NCBI GenBank assembly: GCA_003518055.1
Contig: DOZJ01000006.1
Coordinates: 201,631 to 265,630, forward strand
Length of the DNA: 64,000 nt
From: Candidatus Falkowbacteria bacterium
Lineage (GTDB): Bacteria > Patescibacteriota > Patescibacteriia > UBA11705
Reading direction: 5' to 3'
Part shown: one piece after another, positions 3,910 through 60,515 of the stretch
Layout: every line of letters begins with the position of its first letter
Position numbering within the stretch: the first letter of the stretch is position 1
The notes under the pieces: model-generated
Database searches by the model: none
Told to the model about the DNA's origin: nothing
What the model saw: the letters and a program-made list of their open reading frames with translations, nothing else
Translations under genes and position numbers: made by a program

Positions 3910-5076
3910 ATGTCTTATAGACGATTGAAACAATCAAAATCATCAAAGGCGCGGCGAGGTCAGCTGACAACGCGACGCGGAGTATTGGAAACGCCGTTTT
4001 TTATGCCGATCGCGACCAAAGCAGCGGTTAAAAGTTTGACTTATGAAGATTTGCAAGCGCTCGAGGCGCAAATTGTGCTCAGCAATACATATCATTTGAT
4101 GCTCAAGCCGGGAAATTCATTGATAAAAAAAGTTGGAGGATTGCATCACTTTATGAATTGGGATAAACCGATTTTAACCGATAGCGGCGGTTTTCAGGTG
4201 TTTTCATTATCCAAAATCAGAAAGATTACCGAAGAAGGGGTTGAATTTCGGTCACACATTGATGGCAGCAAACACTTTATAAAACCGGAAGATTCAATTC
4301 AGATTCAGTTGGATTTGGGGTCGGATATTGTCATGGCTTTTGATGAATGTGTGGAATTGCCGGCGAAAAAAGAATATCTGGAGAAATCCGTGGAGTTGAC
4401 AACGAGATGGGCGAAGCGGTGTCAAGAGTATTTCGTTTCAAATTTACGAAAGGTTACGAATAATACGAAAACAAGACAGCCATTATTGTTTGGGATTGTG
4501 CAGGGAGGGTTGGATAAGGGGTTGCGCAAAAAAAGTGCTCAGGATTTGGTGAGTATTGGTTTCGACGGTTATGCGATTGGAGGCTTGTCCGTGGGAGAGT
4601 CGGAAAAAGAAATGTATAAAGTGTTGGATTATATCACTGATGAATTACCGGAAGATAAGCCCAGATACCTCATGGGTGTTGGCCGACCGGAAAACATCAT
4701 AAACGCGGTTAAAAGAGGTGTGGATATGTTTGATTGCGTGATTCCGACCAGAGAGGCGAGGCATGGGCGGCTCTACCTGTGGCGTGATGGGTTACGAAAT
4801 TACAAAAGGTTGCGAAAGGTTACAAAAACTAAACAGCTAAATATTTTAAATAATCCGAAGAGTTGTTATAAAACAATCAACATCACGTCGGAAAAGTATT
4901 CAAAGAAGTTTGAGCCGATAAACGCGGAATCGAAATTTCCGGTGTTGAGGAATTATACCAAAGCGTATTTGAGGCACTTGTTTTCTGTTAACGAACCTTT
5001 GGCCATCAGATTGGCGACTTTGAACAATTTGGAGTTTTATTTGGGATTGATGGAGAAAATTAGGCGGGCGATATAA
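3910..5076 (+). CDS. tgt: queuine tRNA-ribosyltransferase Tgt (divergent, zinc-site cysteines absent)
   Basis: TIM-barrel Tgt motifs are present (LTDSGGFQV, FDCVIPTR, GVGRPE). The region that normally carries CxCxxC is replaced by a lysine-rich insertion, and a second small insertion lies at 4441-4470. Confidence 0.85.
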   Translation: MSYRRLKQSKSSKARRGQLTTRRGVLETPFFMPIATKAAVKSLTYEDLQALEAQIVLSNTYHLMLKPGNSLIKKVGGLHHFMNWDKPILTDSGGFQVFSLSKIRKITEEGVEFRSHIDGSKHFIKPEDSIQIQLDLGSDIVMAFDECVELPAKKEYLEKSVELTTRWAKRCQEYFVSNLRKVTNNTKTRQPLLFGIVQGGLDKGLRKKSAQDLVSIGFDGYAIGGLSVGESEKEMYKVLDYITDELPEDKPRYLMGVGRPENIINAVKRGVDMFDCVIPTREARHGRLYLWRDGLRNYKRLRKVTKTKQLNILNNPKSCYKTINITSEKYSKKFEPINAESKFPVLRNYTKAYLRHLFSVNEPLAIRLATLNNLEFYLGLMEKIRRAI

Positions 5077-5326: not shown

Positions 5327-5647
5327 ATGGGAGGGTTTGTATATATAATAACAAATAAATATAACACAGCTTTGTATGTAGGATCGGCAACTGATCTGCT
5401 GTTTAGAATTCAACAGCATAAGAACAAGGCATATAAGAGTTCATTTTCGGCTAGATATAATATTTCAAAATTGGTTTATTTTGAATGTTTTAATAGCAGA
5501 TATGAGGCATATCAACGAGAATATCAAATAAAGTCAGGATCAAGGGCTAAAAAGATTGCGTTAATAATAAAAGCGAATCCAGATTTTGATGATCTTTATG
5601 ATGATATTGTTTTAAATGGGATTGAAAAAAGTATATATAATAAATAG
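5327..5647 (+). CDS. GIY-YIG nuclease superfamily protein (YhbQ/UPF0213-like, ~106 aa)
   Basis: GFVYIITNKYNTALYVGSATDLLFRIQQH matches the GIY-YIG core of the short stand-alone family. The ATG at 5327 was chosen because the upstream part of the listed ORF is repeat sequence. Confidence 0.7.
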   Translation: MGGFVYIITNKYNTALYVGSATDLLFRIQQHKNKAYKSSFSARYNISKLVYFECFNSRYEAYQREYQIKSGSRAKKIALIIKANPDFDDLYDDIVLNGIEKSIYNK

Positions 5648-5686
5648 TGTAGCGTGAATTACGGAGCTGGTTGGAGACTGCTAAGA

Positions 5687-5922
5687 TTGACAGCTAATGG
5701 AGGCTGCTTCGTCGTAACTGGGTTGATGTGGAGTTCGAAACCGGGTGGAGCTGCTACATCTGTCAGCTAACGGAGGCTGCCACGGCGTTACTGCGTACGC
5801 CTCGCAGCAAAAGAAAGAGATGATATTTGCGAGGAGGTACGACGAAGCAAACTACGAACAAGCTGCCGTGTTTGCCTACTGATGGAGGCTGCTTCGTCGT
5901 TACTACGTACTCCTCGCAGCAA
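5687..5922. repeat. repeat family R1 (three units plus spacer) downstream of the GIY-YIG gene
   Basis: Units at 5687-5720 (truncated), 5758-5810 and 5876-5922. The same spacer as upstream lies at 5826-5857. Confidence 0.8.
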
Positions 5923-5948
5923 TAAAAAGGGGTTATGTTCAAAATAAT

Positions 5949-6680
5949 ATGTCTGCAAGCGATGTTGTAAAAGAATTAAAAGCTTTAAAAGATCCGAAAA
6001 AAGCCAATAATTTGGCTTGGTTTTTTAAAACAGGGAAGGGTGAATACGGCGAAGGTGATAAGTTTCTGGGAATCGTGATGGGTGATTTGCGGCAAATAGC
6101 GAAAAAATATTGTGACTTGCCGTTAACTGAAGTTCAAAAATTGGTTGTTAATCCTTACCACGAAATAAGAATGGCCGCGTTGTTGGTTCTGGTTTATAAA
6201 GTTACGGATTTACAGAAATTACGAATATTACGAACACGAGAAATTGATTCTTTGAAACAAATTTACGATTTTTATTTGAAAAATACTAAATATATTAATA
6301 ATTGGGATTTGGTGGATGTGACAACGCCGCAAATCGTAGGGAATTATTTGGTCAATCGAGACCGGAAGATATTATACAAATTAGCCAAGTCAAAGAGCTT
6401 GTGGGAAAAAAGAATCGCTGTCTTGGCGACCTTTTCGTTTATTAAAAATAGGGATTTTCATGATGCCTTGAAAATAGCTGAAGTTTTACTTAATGATAAT
6501 CATGACTTGATTCATAAGGCGGTAGGATGGATGCTCCGGGAGGTGGGTAAACGAGATCCGGCGGAGGAAAGAGCTTTTCTTGATAAACATGGTTTAAATA
6601 TGCCGAGGACGATGTTGCGATATGCGATTGAAAAGTTTCCGGAGCCAATGAGACAGAAGTATTTGAAAAGAAAATCCTAA
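5949..6680 (+). CDS. DNA alkylation repair enzyme (AlkD/AlkC HEAT-like repeat family)
   Basis: 243 aa with N-terminal KANNLAWFFKTGKGEYGEGDKFLG and a HEAT-repeat architecture typical of PF08713. Confidence 0.7.
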   Translation: MSASDVVKELKALKDPKKANNLAWFFKTGKGEYGEGDKFLGIVMGDLRQIAKKYCDLPLTEVQKLVVNPYHEIRMAALLVLVYKVTDLQKLRILRTREIDSLKQIYDFYLKNTKYINNWDLVDVTTPQIVGNYLVNRDRKILYKLAKSKSLWEKRIAVLATFSFIKNRDFHDALKIAEVLLNDNHDLIHKAVGWMLREVGKRDPAEERAFLDKHGLNMPRTMLRYAIEKFPEPMRQKYLKRKS

Positions 6681-6749
6681 TAACATAGGGATCAATCTAA
6701 ATGATACGAATTAAAAAAAATTGACGTTGATTAGCGTCTGATTTTTTTA

Positions 6750-18497: not shown

Positions 18498-18572
18498 GCC
18501 TCCATCGTCTAGCGGTTAGGACATCGCCTTCTCACGGCGGAAACCGGGGTTCGATTCCCCGTGGAGGTACCA
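18498..18572 (+). tRNA. tRNA-Glu (anticodon CUC)
   Basis: 75-nt cloverleaf with acceptor GCCTCCA/TGGAGGT, a CTC anticodon in the loop cTTCTCAc, a GGTTCGATTCC T-arm and an encoded CCA end. Preceded by a TTGACG-N17-TAGAAT promoter at ~18446-18475. Confidence 0.85.
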
Positions 18573-18592: not shown

Positions 18593-18690
18593 GAGCTTCG
18601 GCTGGCACGGCCAGTACTATAGCTTTTTAAATGAGCTTCGGCTGGCACGGCCAGTACTATAGCTTTTTAAATGAGCTTCGGCTGGCGAGC
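18593..18690 (+). repeat. 40-bp tandem repeat x2.5 (GAGCTTCGGCTGGCACGGCCAGTACTATAGCTTTTTAAAT) immediately 3' of tRNA-Glu
   Basis: Two perfect copies and one partial copy. Each unit contains a CTGGC-acg-GCCAG hairpin followed by a T-run. Confidence 0.85.
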
Positions 18691-18883: not shown

Positions 18884-19429
18884 CTAGAGGTGGAAGTCGG
18901 TGCAGATGATGGATTCGAGCATGTTGTAGGAGTCGTCCCATTCGGGATGCTCGGGGTCGTGGCAGCGGAGGTCGGGCAGGTCGTCGGCGAAGGTGCCTTG
19001 GGTGACGGTGCCGGCGGGAACGGTGCGTCTGGTGCGGATGGCGACCGTGAGCTCGGCCACGGTCTGCAGCGCGATGATGTCGGGGTGGGTCGGGTCTCCG
19101 GTTTCGCGCAGGATCTCGATGGCGCGTCGGGCGTGATTCGGGCCGTAGTAGAAGTTGTACTGGCCCGTCTCGATCTTCCCGTGCTTCTTCACGTCGCCGA
19201 AGTCGATCACGAAGCGCTTGCCGCCGGCCCAGTCGATGTAGAAGCGGCTGGTGGCGTGTTCGAGCAGAATGGCGAGCGCCCCCACGTCGTCGATGATGTT
19301 GGGGGTGGGGTCGGCGGCGCTGACGCCGAACTTGACGCCGGCGTTGTACAGAGCCGCCAGAATATCTTCCTCGACGAGTCCTTGAACGTCCACGATGCTG
19401 TCGTGGGTGCAGGTGCGATCGAATGGCAT
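18884..19429 (-). CDS. hypothetical protein encoded in GC-rich island A (181 aa)
   Basis: Body ~65% GC against ~40% in the flanks. AAGGAGGAGG RBS and the shared TTGACT-N17-TATAAT promoter immediately upstream, with a terminator downstream. The overlapping plus-strand ORF is regarded as a GC artefact. Confidence 0.55.
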   Translation of the reverse strand: MPFDRTCTHDSIVDVQGLVEEDILAALYNAGVKFGVSAADPTPNIIDDVGALAILLEHATSRFYIDWAGGKRFVIDFGDVKKHGKIETGQYNFYYGPNHARRAIEILRETGDPTHPDIIALQTVAELTVAIRTRRTVPAGTVTQGTFADDLPDLRCHDPEHPEWDDSYNMLESIICTDFHL

Positions 19430-20609: not shown

Positions 20610-20981
20610 ATGCCTACTTCATATCGAGAATTAAGAATTTGGAAGAAAGGATACGATCTTCTTTTGGAGGTTTATGAAATAACGAGTCATTATCCAAATG
20701 GTGAAAAATTTGGCTTGGTTTCTGATACTAGACGTTCGGCTAATTCGATTATCGCCAATATTGCGGAAAGCCATGGGCGTTATTACTTTCTGGATAAAAT
20801 TAGGGTTTTATATATTGCTAGGGGTGAAGTTGAGGAAGTGAGAAGTCATTTAGAAGTGGCTTTTGGGGTGAATTATTTAACACAAGAAGTTTATAAAAAA
20901 TTAGATTTAGAGTATCAAGGTTTATTAATTGGTTTAAATGAATACATAAACAGCATTTTTAAAGAAAAAAATAAAACTTAA
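20610..20981 (+). CDS. four-helix-bundle protein (23S rRNA intervening-sequence protein / Avd-like family)
   Basis: 123 aa. YRELRIWKKGYDLLLEVYEITSHYP...GLVSDTRRSANSIIANIAESHGR matches the PF05635/TIGR02436 signature. Confidence 0.8.
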   Translation: MPTSYRELRIWKKGYDLLLEVYEITSHYPNGEKFGLVSDTRRSANSIIANIAESHGRYYFLDKIRVLYIARGEVEEVRSHLEVAFGVNYLTQEVYKKLDLEYQGLLIGLNEYINSIFKEKNKT

Positions 20982-48176: not shown

Positions 48177-48986
48177 ATGATAATTATTTACGCGACATTT
48201 TTTGCCTTGGTTCAAGCGGTAACGGAATTTTGGCCCGTGTCGAGTTCCGGACACTTGGTTTTGCTGCACGAATTGCTCCAGATGCAGGTGATAGATGATT
48301 TAACTTTTGATGTGGCCTTGCATTTAGGTACAGCATTAGCTTTGATTTGGTATTTTTGGGTTGATATCAAGCGGTATGCCAAAGCTTTTTTTTCTATCTT
48401 TCGTGGAGTGAACTTGGGCAGTGAAGATCAGAAAACTGTATTTAATTTAATGCTGGCAACCGTGCCGGCTGTGTTGGTTGGAATCTTTTTGGAAAGTACG
48501 ATTGAGGTGGTGTTTCGCAGTGTCATCATTGTAGCGATAAATCTTATAGTCGGCGGATTGATTATTTTTGCCGTAGAGCGCTGGGGGCAGAAAAAACGAG
48601 ATTTTGAGAATTTGTCACTGATTGAATCGTTTGGGATCGGCTGCGCTCAAGCTTTGGCGTTGATTCCCGGCGTGTCGCGGTCCGGCAGTACCATTATAAC
48701 AGGAATGATTTTAAAATTGAAACGACCGGAAGCGGCGAGATTTTCTTTTTTACTCAGCATCCCGATTGTGCTTGGCGCCGCGGCCAAAAAATTATTTGAA
48801 ATTTCATGGAATTTGGTCAGTGCCAAAGAATTATACATTTTTTTGTATAGCGTTATTCTGACCTTTGTCATCGGCTATTTCATTATCAAATATTTTTTGC
48901 GCTTTTTGCAAAATCGGTCATTAAATATTTTCGGCTGGTACCGGATTTTGTTGGGATTGATTATTTTGGCGGTGTATTATTTATAG
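48177..48986 (+). CDS. uppP: undecaprenyl-diphosphatase UppP (BacA)
   Basis: 269 aa polytopic membrane protein with the conserved VTEFWPVSSSGHL N-terminal motif. Confidence 0.9.
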   Translation: MIIIYATFFALVQAVTEFWPVSSSGHLVLLHELLQMQVIDDLTFDVALHLGTALALIWYFWVDIKRYAKAFFSIFRGVNLGSEDQKTVFNLMLATVPAVLVGIFLESTIEVVFRSVIIVAINLIVGGLIIFAVERWGQKKRDFENLSLIESFGIGCAQALALIPGVSRSGSTIITGMILKLKRPEAARFSFLLSIPIVLGAAAKKLFEISWNLVSAKELYIFLYSVILTFVIGYFIIKYFLRFLQNRSLNIFGWYRILLGLIILAVYYL

Positions 48987-49002
48987 CGATTGCATGTTTG
49001 GC

Positions 49003-49034
49003 CAAACGAAAAAGACTCCAGGTTTGAAGTCTTT
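49003..49034 (-). terminator. terminator of GC-rich cassette B (AAAGACTccaggtttgaAGTCTTT), bidirectional with uppP
   Basis: 7-bp stem. On the minus strand it is followed by TTTTTCGTTT. Confidence 0.55.
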
Positions 49035-49067
49035 TCTCAATGTTGTGAGATTTGTTCGATCAGTGGG

Positions 49068-49622
49068 TTAGTAGCGGAATGCTTCATCTTCGAGTGGGAG
49101 GCCGAGCGCGGAGCCCAGCCGGTGAAGGCCGAGCCAGATCAGGGCGATGAGGCTCACGACGTAGCCGATGGCCATGAACGGCCAGACGAACGACATCAGA
49201 CCGATGTACGTGCCGCGTTCGCCGACGATGTTGGTCCCGAAGGATAGCTTTTCCGGGATTTCGACATCGTTAATGTTGCTATCTCGGTCGAGAAACGCTG
49301 GCAGGAGTGACGGGAACAGGATGAAGTGGTACCAGCGGATGTGGTCGAGCCGGAAGAAGATCCGGCTGACATCCCTGCTGGGAAGCTTGTAATGCCCCAA
49401 GAGAGTCAGTCTGAACTGGTATCCTTTGTTGGCCTCGTGCCACCGGATCCAGCCGTAGATCAGGCCGAATGCGAAGTAGCCGAGCGGAATCATGACGAAC
49501 CAAGTCCACAGGAACGCGTGAGCGGCTTCCATGTATTTCTCTTTCCGGTCAGCATTGGCTGACTGAATTGACGTTGTTTGAGCTTCAGGCACGCTCGAAG
49601 GACAGGTTTTCTTGGCCGTCAT
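49068..49622 (-). CDS. membrane protein encoded in GC-rich island B, distal gene (real start probably MEAAHAF… near 49532)
   Basis: ~62-65% GC with 3-4 TM helices. Lies downstream of and slightly overlapping the 145-aa ORF. The listed start overlaps the upstream gene. Confidence 0.45.
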   Translation of the reverse strand: MTAKKTCPSSVPEAQTTSIQSANADRKEKYMEAAHAFLWTWFVMIPLGYFAFGLIYGWIRWHEANKGYQFRLTLLGHYKLPSRDVSRIFFRLDHIRWYHFILFPSLLPAFLDRDSNINDVEIPEKLSFGTNIVGERGTYIGLMSFVWPFMAIGYVVSLIALIWLGLHRLGSALGLPLEDEAFRY

Positions 49623-50022
49623 CGTCGATGTAGTAGTTGAATACTTCTCCGTTGTATTCGGCTTTGAGCGCTCGGGCGAAGTAGATTCGGGTGGCGGACT
49701 GTTCGATGTATATGGTGATGTAGAACGTCGATCCTGACGGGAAGCTGATCGAGGCTAGGATATGCCAGTCCCAGCCGGCGCCGTTGTGGAATTCCTTCAG
49801 ATCAGGATTGAAGAGAGTGGTGGCGACCGGATTGCCGAAGTTGGCCTGGAGAATTGCGGCATATGCGTTCAGCACGGCGATCGTTTTGAGATCGATACGT
49901 GTCAGTGTCAGCTTCGTGCCGGATTTACGGCACTTGTCCGAGATGCTCCTTGAGACAAATCCGGGCAGCGTCGGATCGATACCCAGAAACAGCCGAGCCA
50001 TGTCACGACCATGAGCGTTCAT
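49585..50022 (-). CDS. hypothetical protein encoded in GC-rich island B, proximal gene (145 aa)
   Basis: ~65% GC. GGGAGGGAAACC RBS, a structured 5' UTR and shared promoter module copy B immediately upstream. Confidence 0.5.
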   Translation of the reverse strand: MNAHGRDMARLFLGIDPTLPGFVSRSISDKCRKSGTKLTLTRIDLKTIAVLNAYAAILQANFGNPVATTLFNPDLKEFHNGAGWDWHILASISFPSGSTFYITIYIEQSATRIYFARALKAEYNGEVFNYYIDDDGQENLSFERA

Positions 50023-50096
50023 GGTTTCCCTCCCGGAGCCTTGAGCTCCAATGTGTCCCTCTTGAAGGGACGGGTGAAAAGAACTATATAGTAGAT

Positions 50097-50128
50097 ATTA
50101 TATCATACTTTGAATAAAAAGTCAATAG
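50097..50128 (-). promoter_or_regulatory. shared promoter module, copy B (TTGACTTTTTATTCAAAGTATGATATAAT)
   Basis: Minus-strand TTGACT-N17-TATAAT, near-identical to copies A and C. Confidence 0.7.
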
Positions 50129-50291
50129 TAGTGGCTAGAATTAGGTGAAAATAGGCGATAATTGTTATAATTTTGCTAATTAATCTAATTATTTTGATAA
50201 TTGTTCTTATTTAGAGCAATTAGAATAATTAGGACTTAGAATAATTTTTAATGATTTTTTGTTTTTTAGATTTATGCTACAGTAGTTTTAT

Positions 50292-51371
50292 ATGAAATTA
50301 GTGATCATGGCCGGAGGCGGCGGGACTCGATTGTGGCCGCTCAGCCGCGAGGCCAAACCAAAACAATTCAGCCGAATTGTCGGCAACAAAACCATGTTCG
50401 AGGAAACAGTGGCCAGATTTATGGCGGATTTTAGTTTCAACGATATTTACGTGGTTTTGAATGAACAGCTGTTGGCTCAAGCGCGGGAATTGGTCCCGGA
50501 AATCCCGCGACAAAATTATATCGTGGAACCGGAAAAACGTGATACAGCGCCGGCGATGGGTTTTGTCGCGGCCACGTTGTATGATCAAATGCCGGATGAG
50601 CCGATCGCTTTTATTCCGTCCGATCATTATATCGCTGATACTGGTAAATTTATTCGGATGATCAAAATGGCTGAGGCGATAATTCGCAATCAAGGCAAAA
50701 TGGTTGATATCGCCATTCATCCGACTTTTCCCAGCACAGTGCTCGGCTATACCAAAGTCGGTCAATGTTTAAGCTGCGACGATGTTGAAATATATGAATT
50801 TCTTGGCCATACGGAAAAACCCAAATTCGAAACGGCCAAACAATACCTTGAAGACGGTAGTTATTTGTGGCACGCCAGCTATTATATGTGGACACCGCGG
50901 AAAATGCTCGAGGCTTTTAGCAAACACAGCCCAAGCCACGGCGACAAATTGCATCAAATAGTCGAAGCGTTAAAAATAAATAATCAAGAATTGGTGAAAA
51001 TGGCTTTTAATCAGATGGAAAAGATTTCGTTTGACTACGCGGTGACGGAAAAGATTGATCCGAGTGAAGTTTTGATTATGAAAGGTGATTTTGGCTGGAG
51101 CGATGTGGGTGCGTTTGATGTGCTGCACGAGGCGCAAAAGCATTTGATGGATGAAAATTCCAATGTGGTAAAAGCCAACCATATTCATCGTGATTCTTCC
51201 GACAATTTGATATACACGACCAAGGATAAATTGGTGGCGACGGTCGGTTTGAATGATTACGCGGTGATTGATACTGATGATGTTCTCTTGATTTGTCCGA
51301 AAAGCAAATCGCAGGAAGTAAAAAAAATTGTCGAGCAATTAAAAAATAACGGGCAGGATAAATATTTATGA
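50292..51371 (+). CDS. mannose-1-phosphate guanylyltransferase (NTP-transferase family)
   Basis: 359 aa with an N-terminal LVIMAGGGGTRLWPLS nucleotidyltransferase motif. Confidence 0.8.
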   Translation: MKLVIMAGGGGTRLWPLSREAKPKQFSRIVGNKTMFEETVARFMADFSFNDIYVVLNEQLLAQARELVPEIPRQNYIVEPEKRDTAPAMGFVAATLYDQMPDEPIAFIPSDHYIADTGKFIRMIKMAEAIIRNQGKMVDIAIHPTFPSTVLGYTKVGQCLSCDDVEIYEFLGHTEKPKFETAKQYLEDGSYLWHASYYMWTPRKMLEAFSKHSPSHGDKLHQIVEALKINNQELVKMAFNQMEKISFDYAVTEKIDPSEVLIMKGDFGWSDVGAFDVLHEAQKHLMDENSNVVKANHIHRDSSDNLIYTTKDKLVATVGLNDYAVIDTDDVLLICPKSKSQEVKKIVEQLKNNGQDKYL

Positions 51372-60140: not shown

Positions 60141-60515
60141 ATGGTCACTGTGTATTATAAGGATTTGAGTTATGAATTGAATGGTTTAGCATTTGAAATG
60201 TTTAAGTATCATGGCTACGGACAAAGAGAAAAAACATATTGTGATTATTATTGCTCATTGTTAGATGAGAAAAATTTGAAGTATAAAAGGGAAAGATATA
60301 TCCCTGCACTTTGTCACAATGAAAAAATATTAAAACGCTACGCAGATATTATTGTTGAAGATTTGGTGGTGATTGAAATGAAAGTGGGTAAGCGTCTTCG
60401 AAAAGTAAGTTTTGATCAAACTTTAGAGTATCTGAAATTATTAGATAAAAAATTGGGATTATTAATTTGGATTTCTCCCAATGGGGCTCAAGTTTATAGA
60501 GTTCTGAATGGTTAA
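60141..60515 (+). CDS. GxxExxY family protein (PDDEXK_3 nuclease-fold family)
   Basis: 124 aa. LNGLAFEMFKYHGYGQREKTYCDYY matches the GxxExxY motif region of PF13366. Flanked by inverted R4 repeats. Confidence 0.65.
   Translation: MVTVYYKDLSYELNGLAFEMFKYHGYGQREKTYCDYYCSLLDEKNLKYKRERYIPALCHNEKILKRYADIIVEDLVVIEMKVGKRLRKVSFDQTLEYLKLLDKKLGLLIWISPNGAQVYRVLNG

Follow-up and report, generated by a model that had tools for sequence, protein, structure and literature searches.

Island B, at 49.0-50.1 kb of a 64,000-nucleotide (nt) stretch of DNA (hereafter the window) from a groundwater genome of Candidatus Falkowbacteria, a member of the candidate phyla radiation (CPR), is an accessory operon under a strong promoter, lodged in a variable slot of a conserved envelope-gene neighbourhood. 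Promoter, transcript start and downstream gene all belong natively to the slot, and the product of the downstream gene is a small, fast-evolving inner-membrane protein of a lineage-specific family. In the lineage of the window, a second gene, for a protein of 145 residues, sits between the promoter and the membrane gene. An earlier note on this DNA, made from the letters alone, had described the island as a two-gene operon rich in guanine and cytosine (GC) and had offered a toxin/immunity pair as one way to read it. The two open reading frames (ORFs) are present as it claimed, at 49585-50022 (145 residues) and 49068-49622 (184 residues) on the minus strand, and between them they tile the entire island. 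In the direction of transcription, the features of the region are:

50097-50125, minus strand: sigma-70-type promoter TTGACT-N17-TATAAT with a TG extended -10, matching 11 of 12 consensus positions, the best site of the region
50074-50084, minus strand: start-of-transcript motif GTTCTTTTCAC, shared with relatives
50055-50071, minus strand: leader hairpin 1, GTCCCT-TCAAG-AGGGAC, read from the sequence and from a minimum free energy fold
50035-50049, minus strand: leader hairpin 2, GGAGC-TCAA-GGCTCC, read from sequence and fold, abutting the ribosome-binding site (RBS)
50028-50034, minus strand: Shine-Dalgarno sequence GGGAGGG, ending 5 nt ahead of the ATG
49585-50022, minus strand: gene for a soluble 145-residue protein of no known family (GC 54%; GC at third codon positions, GC3, 0.68; isoelectric point, pI, 6.3)
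49548-49563, minus strand: intercistronic hairpin GTCAGC-CAAT-GCTGAC, directly 5' of the membrane-gene RBS
49068-49532, minus strand: gene for a small integral membrane protein of 154 residues, belonging to a syntenic, Falkowbacteria-specific, unnamed family (longest ORF to 49622, 184 residues)
49010-49035, no strand assigned: 10-bp hairpin where the membrane gene and uppP converge, between their stop codons (z = -3.3)

The slot and its resident membrane gene

Relative loci (designated L and a number) were gathered from metagenomes through the neighbouring NTP-transferase gene, and their flanking genes were mapped. About 20 Falkowbacteria-like loci keep the gene order mutM, PAP2-like DUF212, uppP, gap, NTP-transferase, YceG/MltG, translin. 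From uppP to the NTP-transferase gene, the gap measures 33-134 bp in L168, L131, L132, L171, L140 and L136, and 0.5-3.3 kb in the others. Family members are found in most of the longer gaps as membrane proteins of 140-170 residues, encoded on the same strand as in the window, and all of them lie upstream of, and divergent from, the NTP-transferase gene. Searches with jackhmmer located them in 13 relative loci, or 11 distinct genomic ones once the repeats of L141 (L142) and of L139 (L160) are discounted, as well as in the window, always in this same slot. A profile hidden Markov model (HMM) made from nine relatives, with the sequences of the window and of L144 excluded, identified the membrane ORF of the window (E = 1.3e-8) as its sole match among 358 window ORF segments. 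In the relatives, the membrane gene is usually alone at the slot (it is monocistronic in L130, L139, L143, L144 and L148), sometimes duplicated and sometimes absent. Since it mostly stands alone, the two genes of island B are not an obligate pair.

The closest relative, L144, whose NTP-transferase is 87% identical to that of the window, lacks the 145-residue gene; its promoter and membrane gene are separated only by a GC-rich sequence of about 150 nt, which has an ORF of 15 codons. Its membrane protein (6211-6684, minus strand) is 37% identical to that of the window, as against 69-87% for the flanking proteins. Across the family, the shared motifs are Y..IG in the first transmembrane segment (TM1), W(Y/H)xxLxFP, Y....FWP or FWP(I/F)K before the C-terminal transmembrane segment, and GK; in the family alignment G23 and P74 are invariant, and Y19, Y109 and P118 nearly so.

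The overlap of about 38 nt between the two genes, as previously described, applies to the longest ORF of the membrane gene, but with the ATG at 49532 a 52-nt spacer separates the genes and there is no overlap. The RBS and start context of this ATG, CCGGAAAGAGAAATACATGGAA, matches CCTGGAAAGTGAGAATACATGGAA in L144, and the intercistronic hairpin has a counterpart at the same place in that locus (CAGGAU-UAC-AUCCUG), both stems having 6 bp although their sequences differ. Start context and hairpin being common to the two loci, the ATG at 49532 is favoured, giving a protein of 154 residues, and the overlap is thus an artefact of choosing the longest ORF. Four transmembrane segments, also proposed earlier, could not be established: hydropathy gives one clear N-terminal segment, a C-terminal hydrophobic stretch of about 40 residues that would accommodate one or two spans, and a weak central segment. 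A single-sequence AlphaFold2 model, all-helical with a predicted local distance difference test score (pLDDT) of 64, agrees with this in its N-terminal transmembrane segment, its long hydrophobic helix at the C-terminus and its weak middle segment. Scans of Pfam, PADLOC, PHROGs and NCBIfam with the protein and with the family alignment returned nothing significant, a PDB sequence search returned no match, and the family alignment proved too divergent to be used in a pattern scan.

The promoter proposed earlier, TTGACT-N17-TATAAT, is present and near-consensus. Between the window (50162-50074) and L144 (6925-6835), the promoter region is 75% identical over 92 nt, and orthologous or similar promoters precede the membrane gene of the family in L144, L130, L139, L141 and L148. 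The same five loci have the motif GTTCTTT(T/C) about 15-25 nt past the -10 element, and its conservation shows that the promoter region is native to the locus. It belongs to the membrane-gene locus and is no copy of a mobile module. With the family at the same site and its promoter conserved in the relatives, promoter and membrane gene are residents of the slot and not parts of an imported toxin/immunity cassette. We also considered the promoter as a specific mobile module and rejected this, since at least 119 unrelated stretches of genomes, from Firmicutes and CPR, have the pattern TTGACTTTTT-N8-TATGATATAAT; where the sequence downstream of this pattern was GC-rich, it appeared to be non-coding.

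At the other end of the operon, the hairpin at 49010-49035 is probably a bidirectional intrinsic terminator. The earlier proposal of such a terminator, shared with uppP, is borne out in that the hairpin exists, but a scan for consensus terminators did not flag it. A further 3' hairpin, GAGACAAxCCTGTCTCAAA, is common to L144 and L137. As a possible insertion signature, we found flanking repeats only as a single 13-nt pair, one copy of which lies inside the conserved NTP-transferase gene, and judged it to be due to chance.

The slot takes other forms in several relatives. L141 (5308-6834, minus strand) has three membrane paralogs in tandem (145, 140 and 152 residues), each with a TTGACA-type promoter and a terminator hairpin. 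L150 (5640-6866, minus strand) encodes a 408-residue fusion, the N-terminal part of which is the membrane family; its residues 176-297 resemble the N2 domain of PilB (PDB 3jc8, E = 3.7e-6), with no ATPase core. L133 (4635-5165, minus strand) has a GC-rich family member in which the TM1 region lies in frame upstream of the first ATG and no canonical ATG, GTG or TTG start is found past the promoter; it may use a non-canonical start or a leaderless transcript. In L144, a second promoter copy, TATTGACTTTTTATCCCAAAGATACTATACT, is located downstream of the membrane gene (5560-5960, minus strand), followed by short ORFs that look frameshifted. In L162 (3673-7001), a reverse transcriptase (RVT_1, E = 2.4e-22) shares the slot with a bAvd-like four-helix-bundle gene (E = 2e-10), the two together resembling a diversity-generating retroelement; beside them lies a GC-rich orphan ORF of 200 residues (4320-4922, GC3 0.73).

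The 145-residue protein and its leader

The upstream protein is identical to an NCBI hypothetical protein of a Candidatus Falkowbacteria bacterium, and it is carried by groundwater metagenome contigs from JGI, ENA and Logan; as all of these are 100% identical to the window, they offer no population variation to use. Its sequence has no visible signal peptide and no long N-terminal delivery region. Pfam and NCBIfam yielded no family at E ≤ 1, and PADLOC, PHROGs and the PDB families likewise none. In a word-indexed search of 5.8 billion protein clusters, both island B proteins returned only themselves, and neither tblastn against phages and plasmids nor protein scans of IMG/VR viral contigs found relatives of them. 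A PDB profile search with the 145-residue protein gave two chance-level matches to β-sandwich proteins (E = 0.3). Its single-sequence AlphaFold2 model (pLDDT 48) comprises three helices followed by six strands, from which we predict an N-terminal helical and a C-terminal β part; Foldseek comparison of this model to PDB had no match at E ≤ 0.001 and no RelE/ParE protein among the top matches. Profile, PDB and fold searches gave no significant family match to either protein.

An exhaustive HMMER search with the 145-residue protein found, besides the protein itself, a single repeat-inflated match to a 1046-residue FN3 protein (P0005). Residues 67-133 are about 30% identical to the repeats of this protein, which form FN3 β-sandwiches; however, the score of 46 bits sums five repeats, and a single repeat scores about 32 bits and so falls short of significance against the library. 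Further, the alignment covers only part of the domain, and Pfam fn3 is not matched at E ≤ 1. The match is a weak hint at a β-rich C-terminal half, and no more. We also tried the protein as a free-standing version of the PilB-N2-like domain of L150, but the Smith-Waterman score was within the range of shuffled sequences.

One distant syntenic relative was detected, in L137, a 520-kb contig of 37% GC whose NTP-transferase is 75% identical to that of the window. There, the same slot between uppP and the NTP-transferase gene contains a gene for a protein of 159 residues (6189-6668, minus strand, GC3 0.88), and the membrane gene has a promoter of its own. The two proteins align over their full length with about 20% identity (pairwise BLASTP E = 1e-4; Smith-Waterman score 56, compared to 28.2 ± 4.8 for shuffled sequences, a score reached in 0 of 2000 shuffles).

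The two leader hairpins and the RBS that had been described before the 145-residue gene are present, and the leader folds more stably than its shuffles (z = -2.8, 2 of 200). The motif of hairpin 2, TTGGAGCnnnnGGCTCCnGGAGGG, occurs elsewhere in 1.65 Mb of relative loci only before the GC-rich 159-residue gene of L137. Hairpin 2 and RBS together are 86% identical over 29 nt between the window (CATTGGAGCtcaaGGCTCCgGGAGGG) and L137 (CATTGGAGCtttaGGCTCCaGGAGGG), the Shine-Dalgarno sequence of the latter being AGGAGGG. Both leaders also have TATTGACTTTTTAT...TATAAT and a first hairpin, which differs in sequence (CCGCU-UUA-GGCGG in L137). With 86% identity in this element and about 20% in the proteins, the non-coding leader is far better conserved than the protein behind it. 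A scan of IMG/VR did not find the pattern of hairpin 2 and RBS. The earlier note, in naming a promoter module copy, was partly right: hairpin 2 with the RBS is indeed common to the GC-rich gene of L137, a different genome.

Base composition and alternative readings

Islands A (18.8-19.5 kb) and B are the only two stretches that stand out by GC content in the window, which has 42% GC overall. The 63-65% GC that the earlier note gave for the island B genes suits island A, where we measured 63.9%; the two genes of island B have 54.1% and 56.4%. Their GC3 is raised to 0.68 in the 145-residue gene and 0.75 in the membrane gene, compared to a mean of 0.45 (standard deviation 0.08) over 61 window ORFs, the highest values in the window except for island A. 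The same GC and codon analysis, applied to both islands, confirms the compositional deviation of island B as real and below that of island A. By codon position, GC is 0.51-0.54 at the first, 0.41-0.43 at the second and 0.68-0.75 at the third.

Three other readings compete with that of a resident operon with an optional second gene. In AT-rich genomes, a GC-rich island is a classic sign of non-coding RNA, promoters of the same pattern also precede GC-rich non-coding stretches in other genomes, and relatives hold GC-rich islands without ORFs, so that island B might be a GC-rich structured non-coding RNA under a strong promoter, with spurious ORFs. This is countered by the two ORFs on one strand that cover the whole island, by their clear third-position GC enrichment, by the strong and correctly spaced RBS of each, and by the conservation of the membrane family at the protein level in the 13 relative loci. 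In addition, Rfam covariance models had no match at E ≤ 1 within 48900-50300; one tRNA is the sole structured RNA that they found in the whole window. From the pattern over the three codon positions, the tiling ORFs, the RBSs and the lack of an Rfam match, we conclude that these are protein-coding genes and regard the RNA reading as extremely improbable. A pair of toxin and immunity factor, of effector and immunity factor, or of toxin and antitoxin, with the 145-residue protein as the toxin (RelE/ParE-like or other) and the membrane protein as the immunity factor, or with the roles exchanged, would fit a compact two-gene unit with a strong promoter, whose proteins both evolve fast and vary in presence between relatives; the tandem membrane paralogs of L141 resemble an array of orphan immunity genes, and the lack of family matches leaves room for a new type. 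Yet no toxin, antitoxin, immunity or defence model was matched (Pfam at E ≤ 1, PADLOC, PHROGs, NCBIfam), PDB sequence and fold searches gave nothing, and the proteins have no secretion or delivery domain and no DNA-binding antitoxin among them. Moreover, in most relatives the membrane gene is found alone behind the same promoter, and the only other genome with a relative of the 145-residue protein is L137, where the membrane gene has its own promoter. The pair proposed by the earlier note is thus not upheld, and we consider it very unlikely.

The third reading takes the whole island as a recent, foreign, moron-like cassette that came from an unsampled GC-rich donor and landed in the slot by chance, with a mobile promoter module shared with island A. 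It draws on the atypical composition, on the possession of a promoter and a terminator, on the orphan status of both proteins and on the near-identical promoter of island A. Sequence elements common to several cassettes speak for it as well, namely a 13-nt leader stretch, AACGGCCGCTTTA, in island A and in the cassette of L137, and the 3' hairpin of L137 and L144, as do further GC-rich orphan ORFs in the same slot of L133, L137 and L162. Against it, promoter and transcript start are orthologous to those of AT-rich family genes in relatives, the hexamer pattern of the promoter is generic, and the membrane protein belongs to a family native to the slot; nor did we find an integrase, a transposase, attachment repeats or inverted ends, or a relative in phage, plasmid and viral collections. 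For the island as a whole we therefore hold this origin to be rather unlikely; for the 145-residue gene alone it may still apply.

The origin of the high GC is a question in its own right. The membrane gene of L144 has a GC3 of 0.73 in a locus of 39% GC, and that of L133 has 0.81-0.82, also in 39%; L130 and L143 show a moderate rise and the other members match their hosts, and the GC-rich members do not cluster together within the family. In the flanking genes, the window and L144 differ at 61-69% of the fourfold-degenerate sites that lie at conserved residues, which is near saturation. Over such a time, an old foreign or ancestral GC-rich gene should have drifted to the composition of its host. 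Related alleles may have been repeatedly re-imported from a pool of higher GC, or the high GC may have been maintained in place. A strictly vertical version of the latter, in which the GC is kept by selection for a stable, nuclease-resistant and highly translated mRNA, or by locally biased mutation or repair, is supported by the GC3 of 0.7-0.9 in the genes of the window, L144 and L137 despite the near-saturated synonymous sites of their neighbours, by GC-rich leader hairpins that are better conserved than the proteins behind them, by the lack of a detectable donor, and by homologs of the island A protein that are also richer in GC than their hosts in two other genomes. On the other side, most family members are host-like in composition, so that high GC is no property of the family, and we know of no precedent in bacteria for selection on GC3 of such strength. 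We judge this explanation to be quite unlikely.

Island A, to which the earlier note had tentatively related the 145-residue protein as a paralog, encodes an acidic (pI 4.8) protein of 181 residues (18884-19429, minus strand, GC3 0.885). Like island B, it consists of a GC-rich gene without a known family behind a near-identical promoter and a similar RBS, but it lacks the two leader hairpins. A pairwise alignment of the island A and 145-residue proteins gave no sign of relation (BLASTP E = 4; Smith-Waterman score matched by 1229 of 2000 shuffles), and the island A protein has no similarity to either protein of island B, so that the proposed paralogy is not sustained. It has only two relatives, P0003 (47% identity) and P0004 (33%), and both exceed their hosts in GC, with 57% compared to about 37% in L010 and 65% compared to about 52% in L008. 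Island A adjoins a tRNA-Glu(CTC) gene (18498-18572), followed by 2.3 copies of a 40-nt tandem repeat (18593-18686); the tRNA flank may be an integration site.

GC-rich islands without a long ORF occur in relatives of 37-41% GC, at 12953-13548 in L130, 12970-13617 in L131, 10707-11519 in L133, 5900-6690 in L136 and 12395-12835 in L137. They are 0.45-0.8 kb long, have 50-56% GC and show no codon periodicity. As a shared non-coding RNA they were rejected, since they match nothing in Rfam and resemble neither one another nor the window; they could be novel structured RNAs or decayed GC-rich cassettes. In the window itself (1-64000), GC skew is positive in nearly all 400-nt bins, cumulative skew climbs almost monotonically and most genes are on the plus strand, which places the window on a single leading-strand replichore. 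Two small genes are unusually AT-rich: 20610-20981 (plus strand, 31.5% GC), for a 23S rRNA intervening-sequence or Avd-like four-helix-bundle protein (E = 1.6e-29), and 60141-60515 (plus strand, 30.4% GC), for a PD-(D/E)XK nuclease family protein (PDDEXK_3, E = 2.8e-18).

Proposed function and comparison to known systems

We lean slightly towards a reading of island B as a highly expressed, rapidly diversifying envelope module, consisting of a resident membrane gene and an optional 145-residue partner, with its GC content acquired by exchange. An envelope function is suggested by the envelope-biogenesis neighbours, by the fast evolution, duplication and loss of the membrane protein, by the strong promoter and the hairpins, and by the PilB-N2-like fusion in L150. 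In this module, the near-consensus extended -10 promoter would drive high transcription, the GC-rich 5' hairpins would stabilise the mRNA and keep the strong RBS exposed, and the second unit of hairpin and RBS would serve the membrane gene. The product would be an abundant small membrane protein, accompanied in some lineages by the cytoplasmic 145-residue partner, and it may act at the cell envelope in a fast-changing interaction, such as phage exclusion or a surface for pilus or host contact; it would be neither a toxin-antitoxin nor an effector-immunity pair. Gene exchange is documented among groundwater Patescibacteria (PMC12455944), and exchange between members of differing base composition, in which a foreign copy would replace the resident gene in a recombination-prone slot, is our preferred explanation of the high GC.

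Several points weigh against this reading. The function is entirely inferred, without a characterised homolog and with AlphaFold2 models of low confidence for both proteins (pLDDT 48 and 64). The link between the 145-residue protein and L137 is not recovered by HMMER and rests on the single pairwise alignment with about 20% identity, and the comparison of leaders involves two sequences only, with no statistical covariation. The PilB-like fusion is found in one distant member, where the match to Pfam T2SSE (E = 0.0045) lies below the curated cut-off. As to exchange, no GC-rich donor was found among the 5.8 billion protein clusters, which is awkward for simple horizontal transfer, and around island B no mobility genes and no meaningful flanking repeats were found. 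On present evidence, island B is a lineage-specific accessory operon with a new, ordinary-looking membrane-protein family, and no new toxin system.

In a wider reading, which we rate as unlikely, AT-rich Falkowbacteria genomes would carry a class of small, highly expressed and diversifying GC-rich genes behind a shared expression module, with the membrane family modulating the interface, of type IV pilus or envelope, on which these episymbionts depend; a role of this family at the type IV pilus or envelope is hinted at by the PilB-N2 fusion of L150. The module would consist of an extended -10 promoter close to consensus, 5' hairpins rich in GC that abut a strong RBS, and a hairpin at the 3' end; the slots of the class would include that between uppP and the NTP-transferase gene (window, L137, L144, L133) and the tRNA-Glu flank of island A; and its high GC would be actively maintained or continually re-imported from an unsampled pool. 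Such a class of GC-rich cassettes is possible, if thinly supported.

CPR/Patescibacteria genomes are rich in uncharacterised small proteins, and this locus offers a defined variable slot within a conserved envelope-gene neighbourhood, together with a new family of fast-evolving membrane proteins to follow from genome to genome. It also poses a puzzle, in that related genes have a GC3 of 0.7-0.9 in genomes of 37-42% GC despite the saturation of neighbouring synonymous sites. An answer of either kind, be it a hidden pool of genes or selection acting on the composition of the mRNA, would bear on how streamlined symbionts gain and express new genes.

Among known systems, the RelE/ParE type II toxins, which the earlier note had brought up for the C-terminal segment of the 145-residue protein, have in common with it only a small size and, by its low-confidence model, a β-rich C-terminal half. 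These toxins typically have about 90-100 residues and a fold of two helices and four strands. The protein exceeds this length and has no significant sequence or profile match to them, and the resemblance finds no support; the fold search returned none of them either, although the model behind it is too poor for a verdict on the fold. Further, there is no adjacent DNA-binding antitoxin, the partner in island B being a membrane protein that is mostly found alone. Genomic islets and phage morons form single transcription units, have a promoter and a terminator to themselves and are atypical in base composition. Island B is similar to these in being compact, in having a strong promoter and a 3' hairpin of its own, in its deviant composition and in its presence or absence at one slot. 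It differs in that it lies outside any prophage and has no mobility genes, and in that its promoter and second gene are native to the slot.

SieB is a small membrane protein that mediates superinfection exclusion, and some phage proteins block PilB, the ATPase of type IV pili. The island B family has no significant homology to either, its gene is chromosomal and outside a prophage, no phage relatives were found, and the link to PilB consists of one distant fusion. The family resembles SieB-type exclusion proteins and PilB blockers in being small, fast-evolving, membrane-bound and variable in copy number and presence; one of its members has a very weak match to SieB (E = 0.069), and another, in L150, carries the fused domain that is similar to N2 of PilB.

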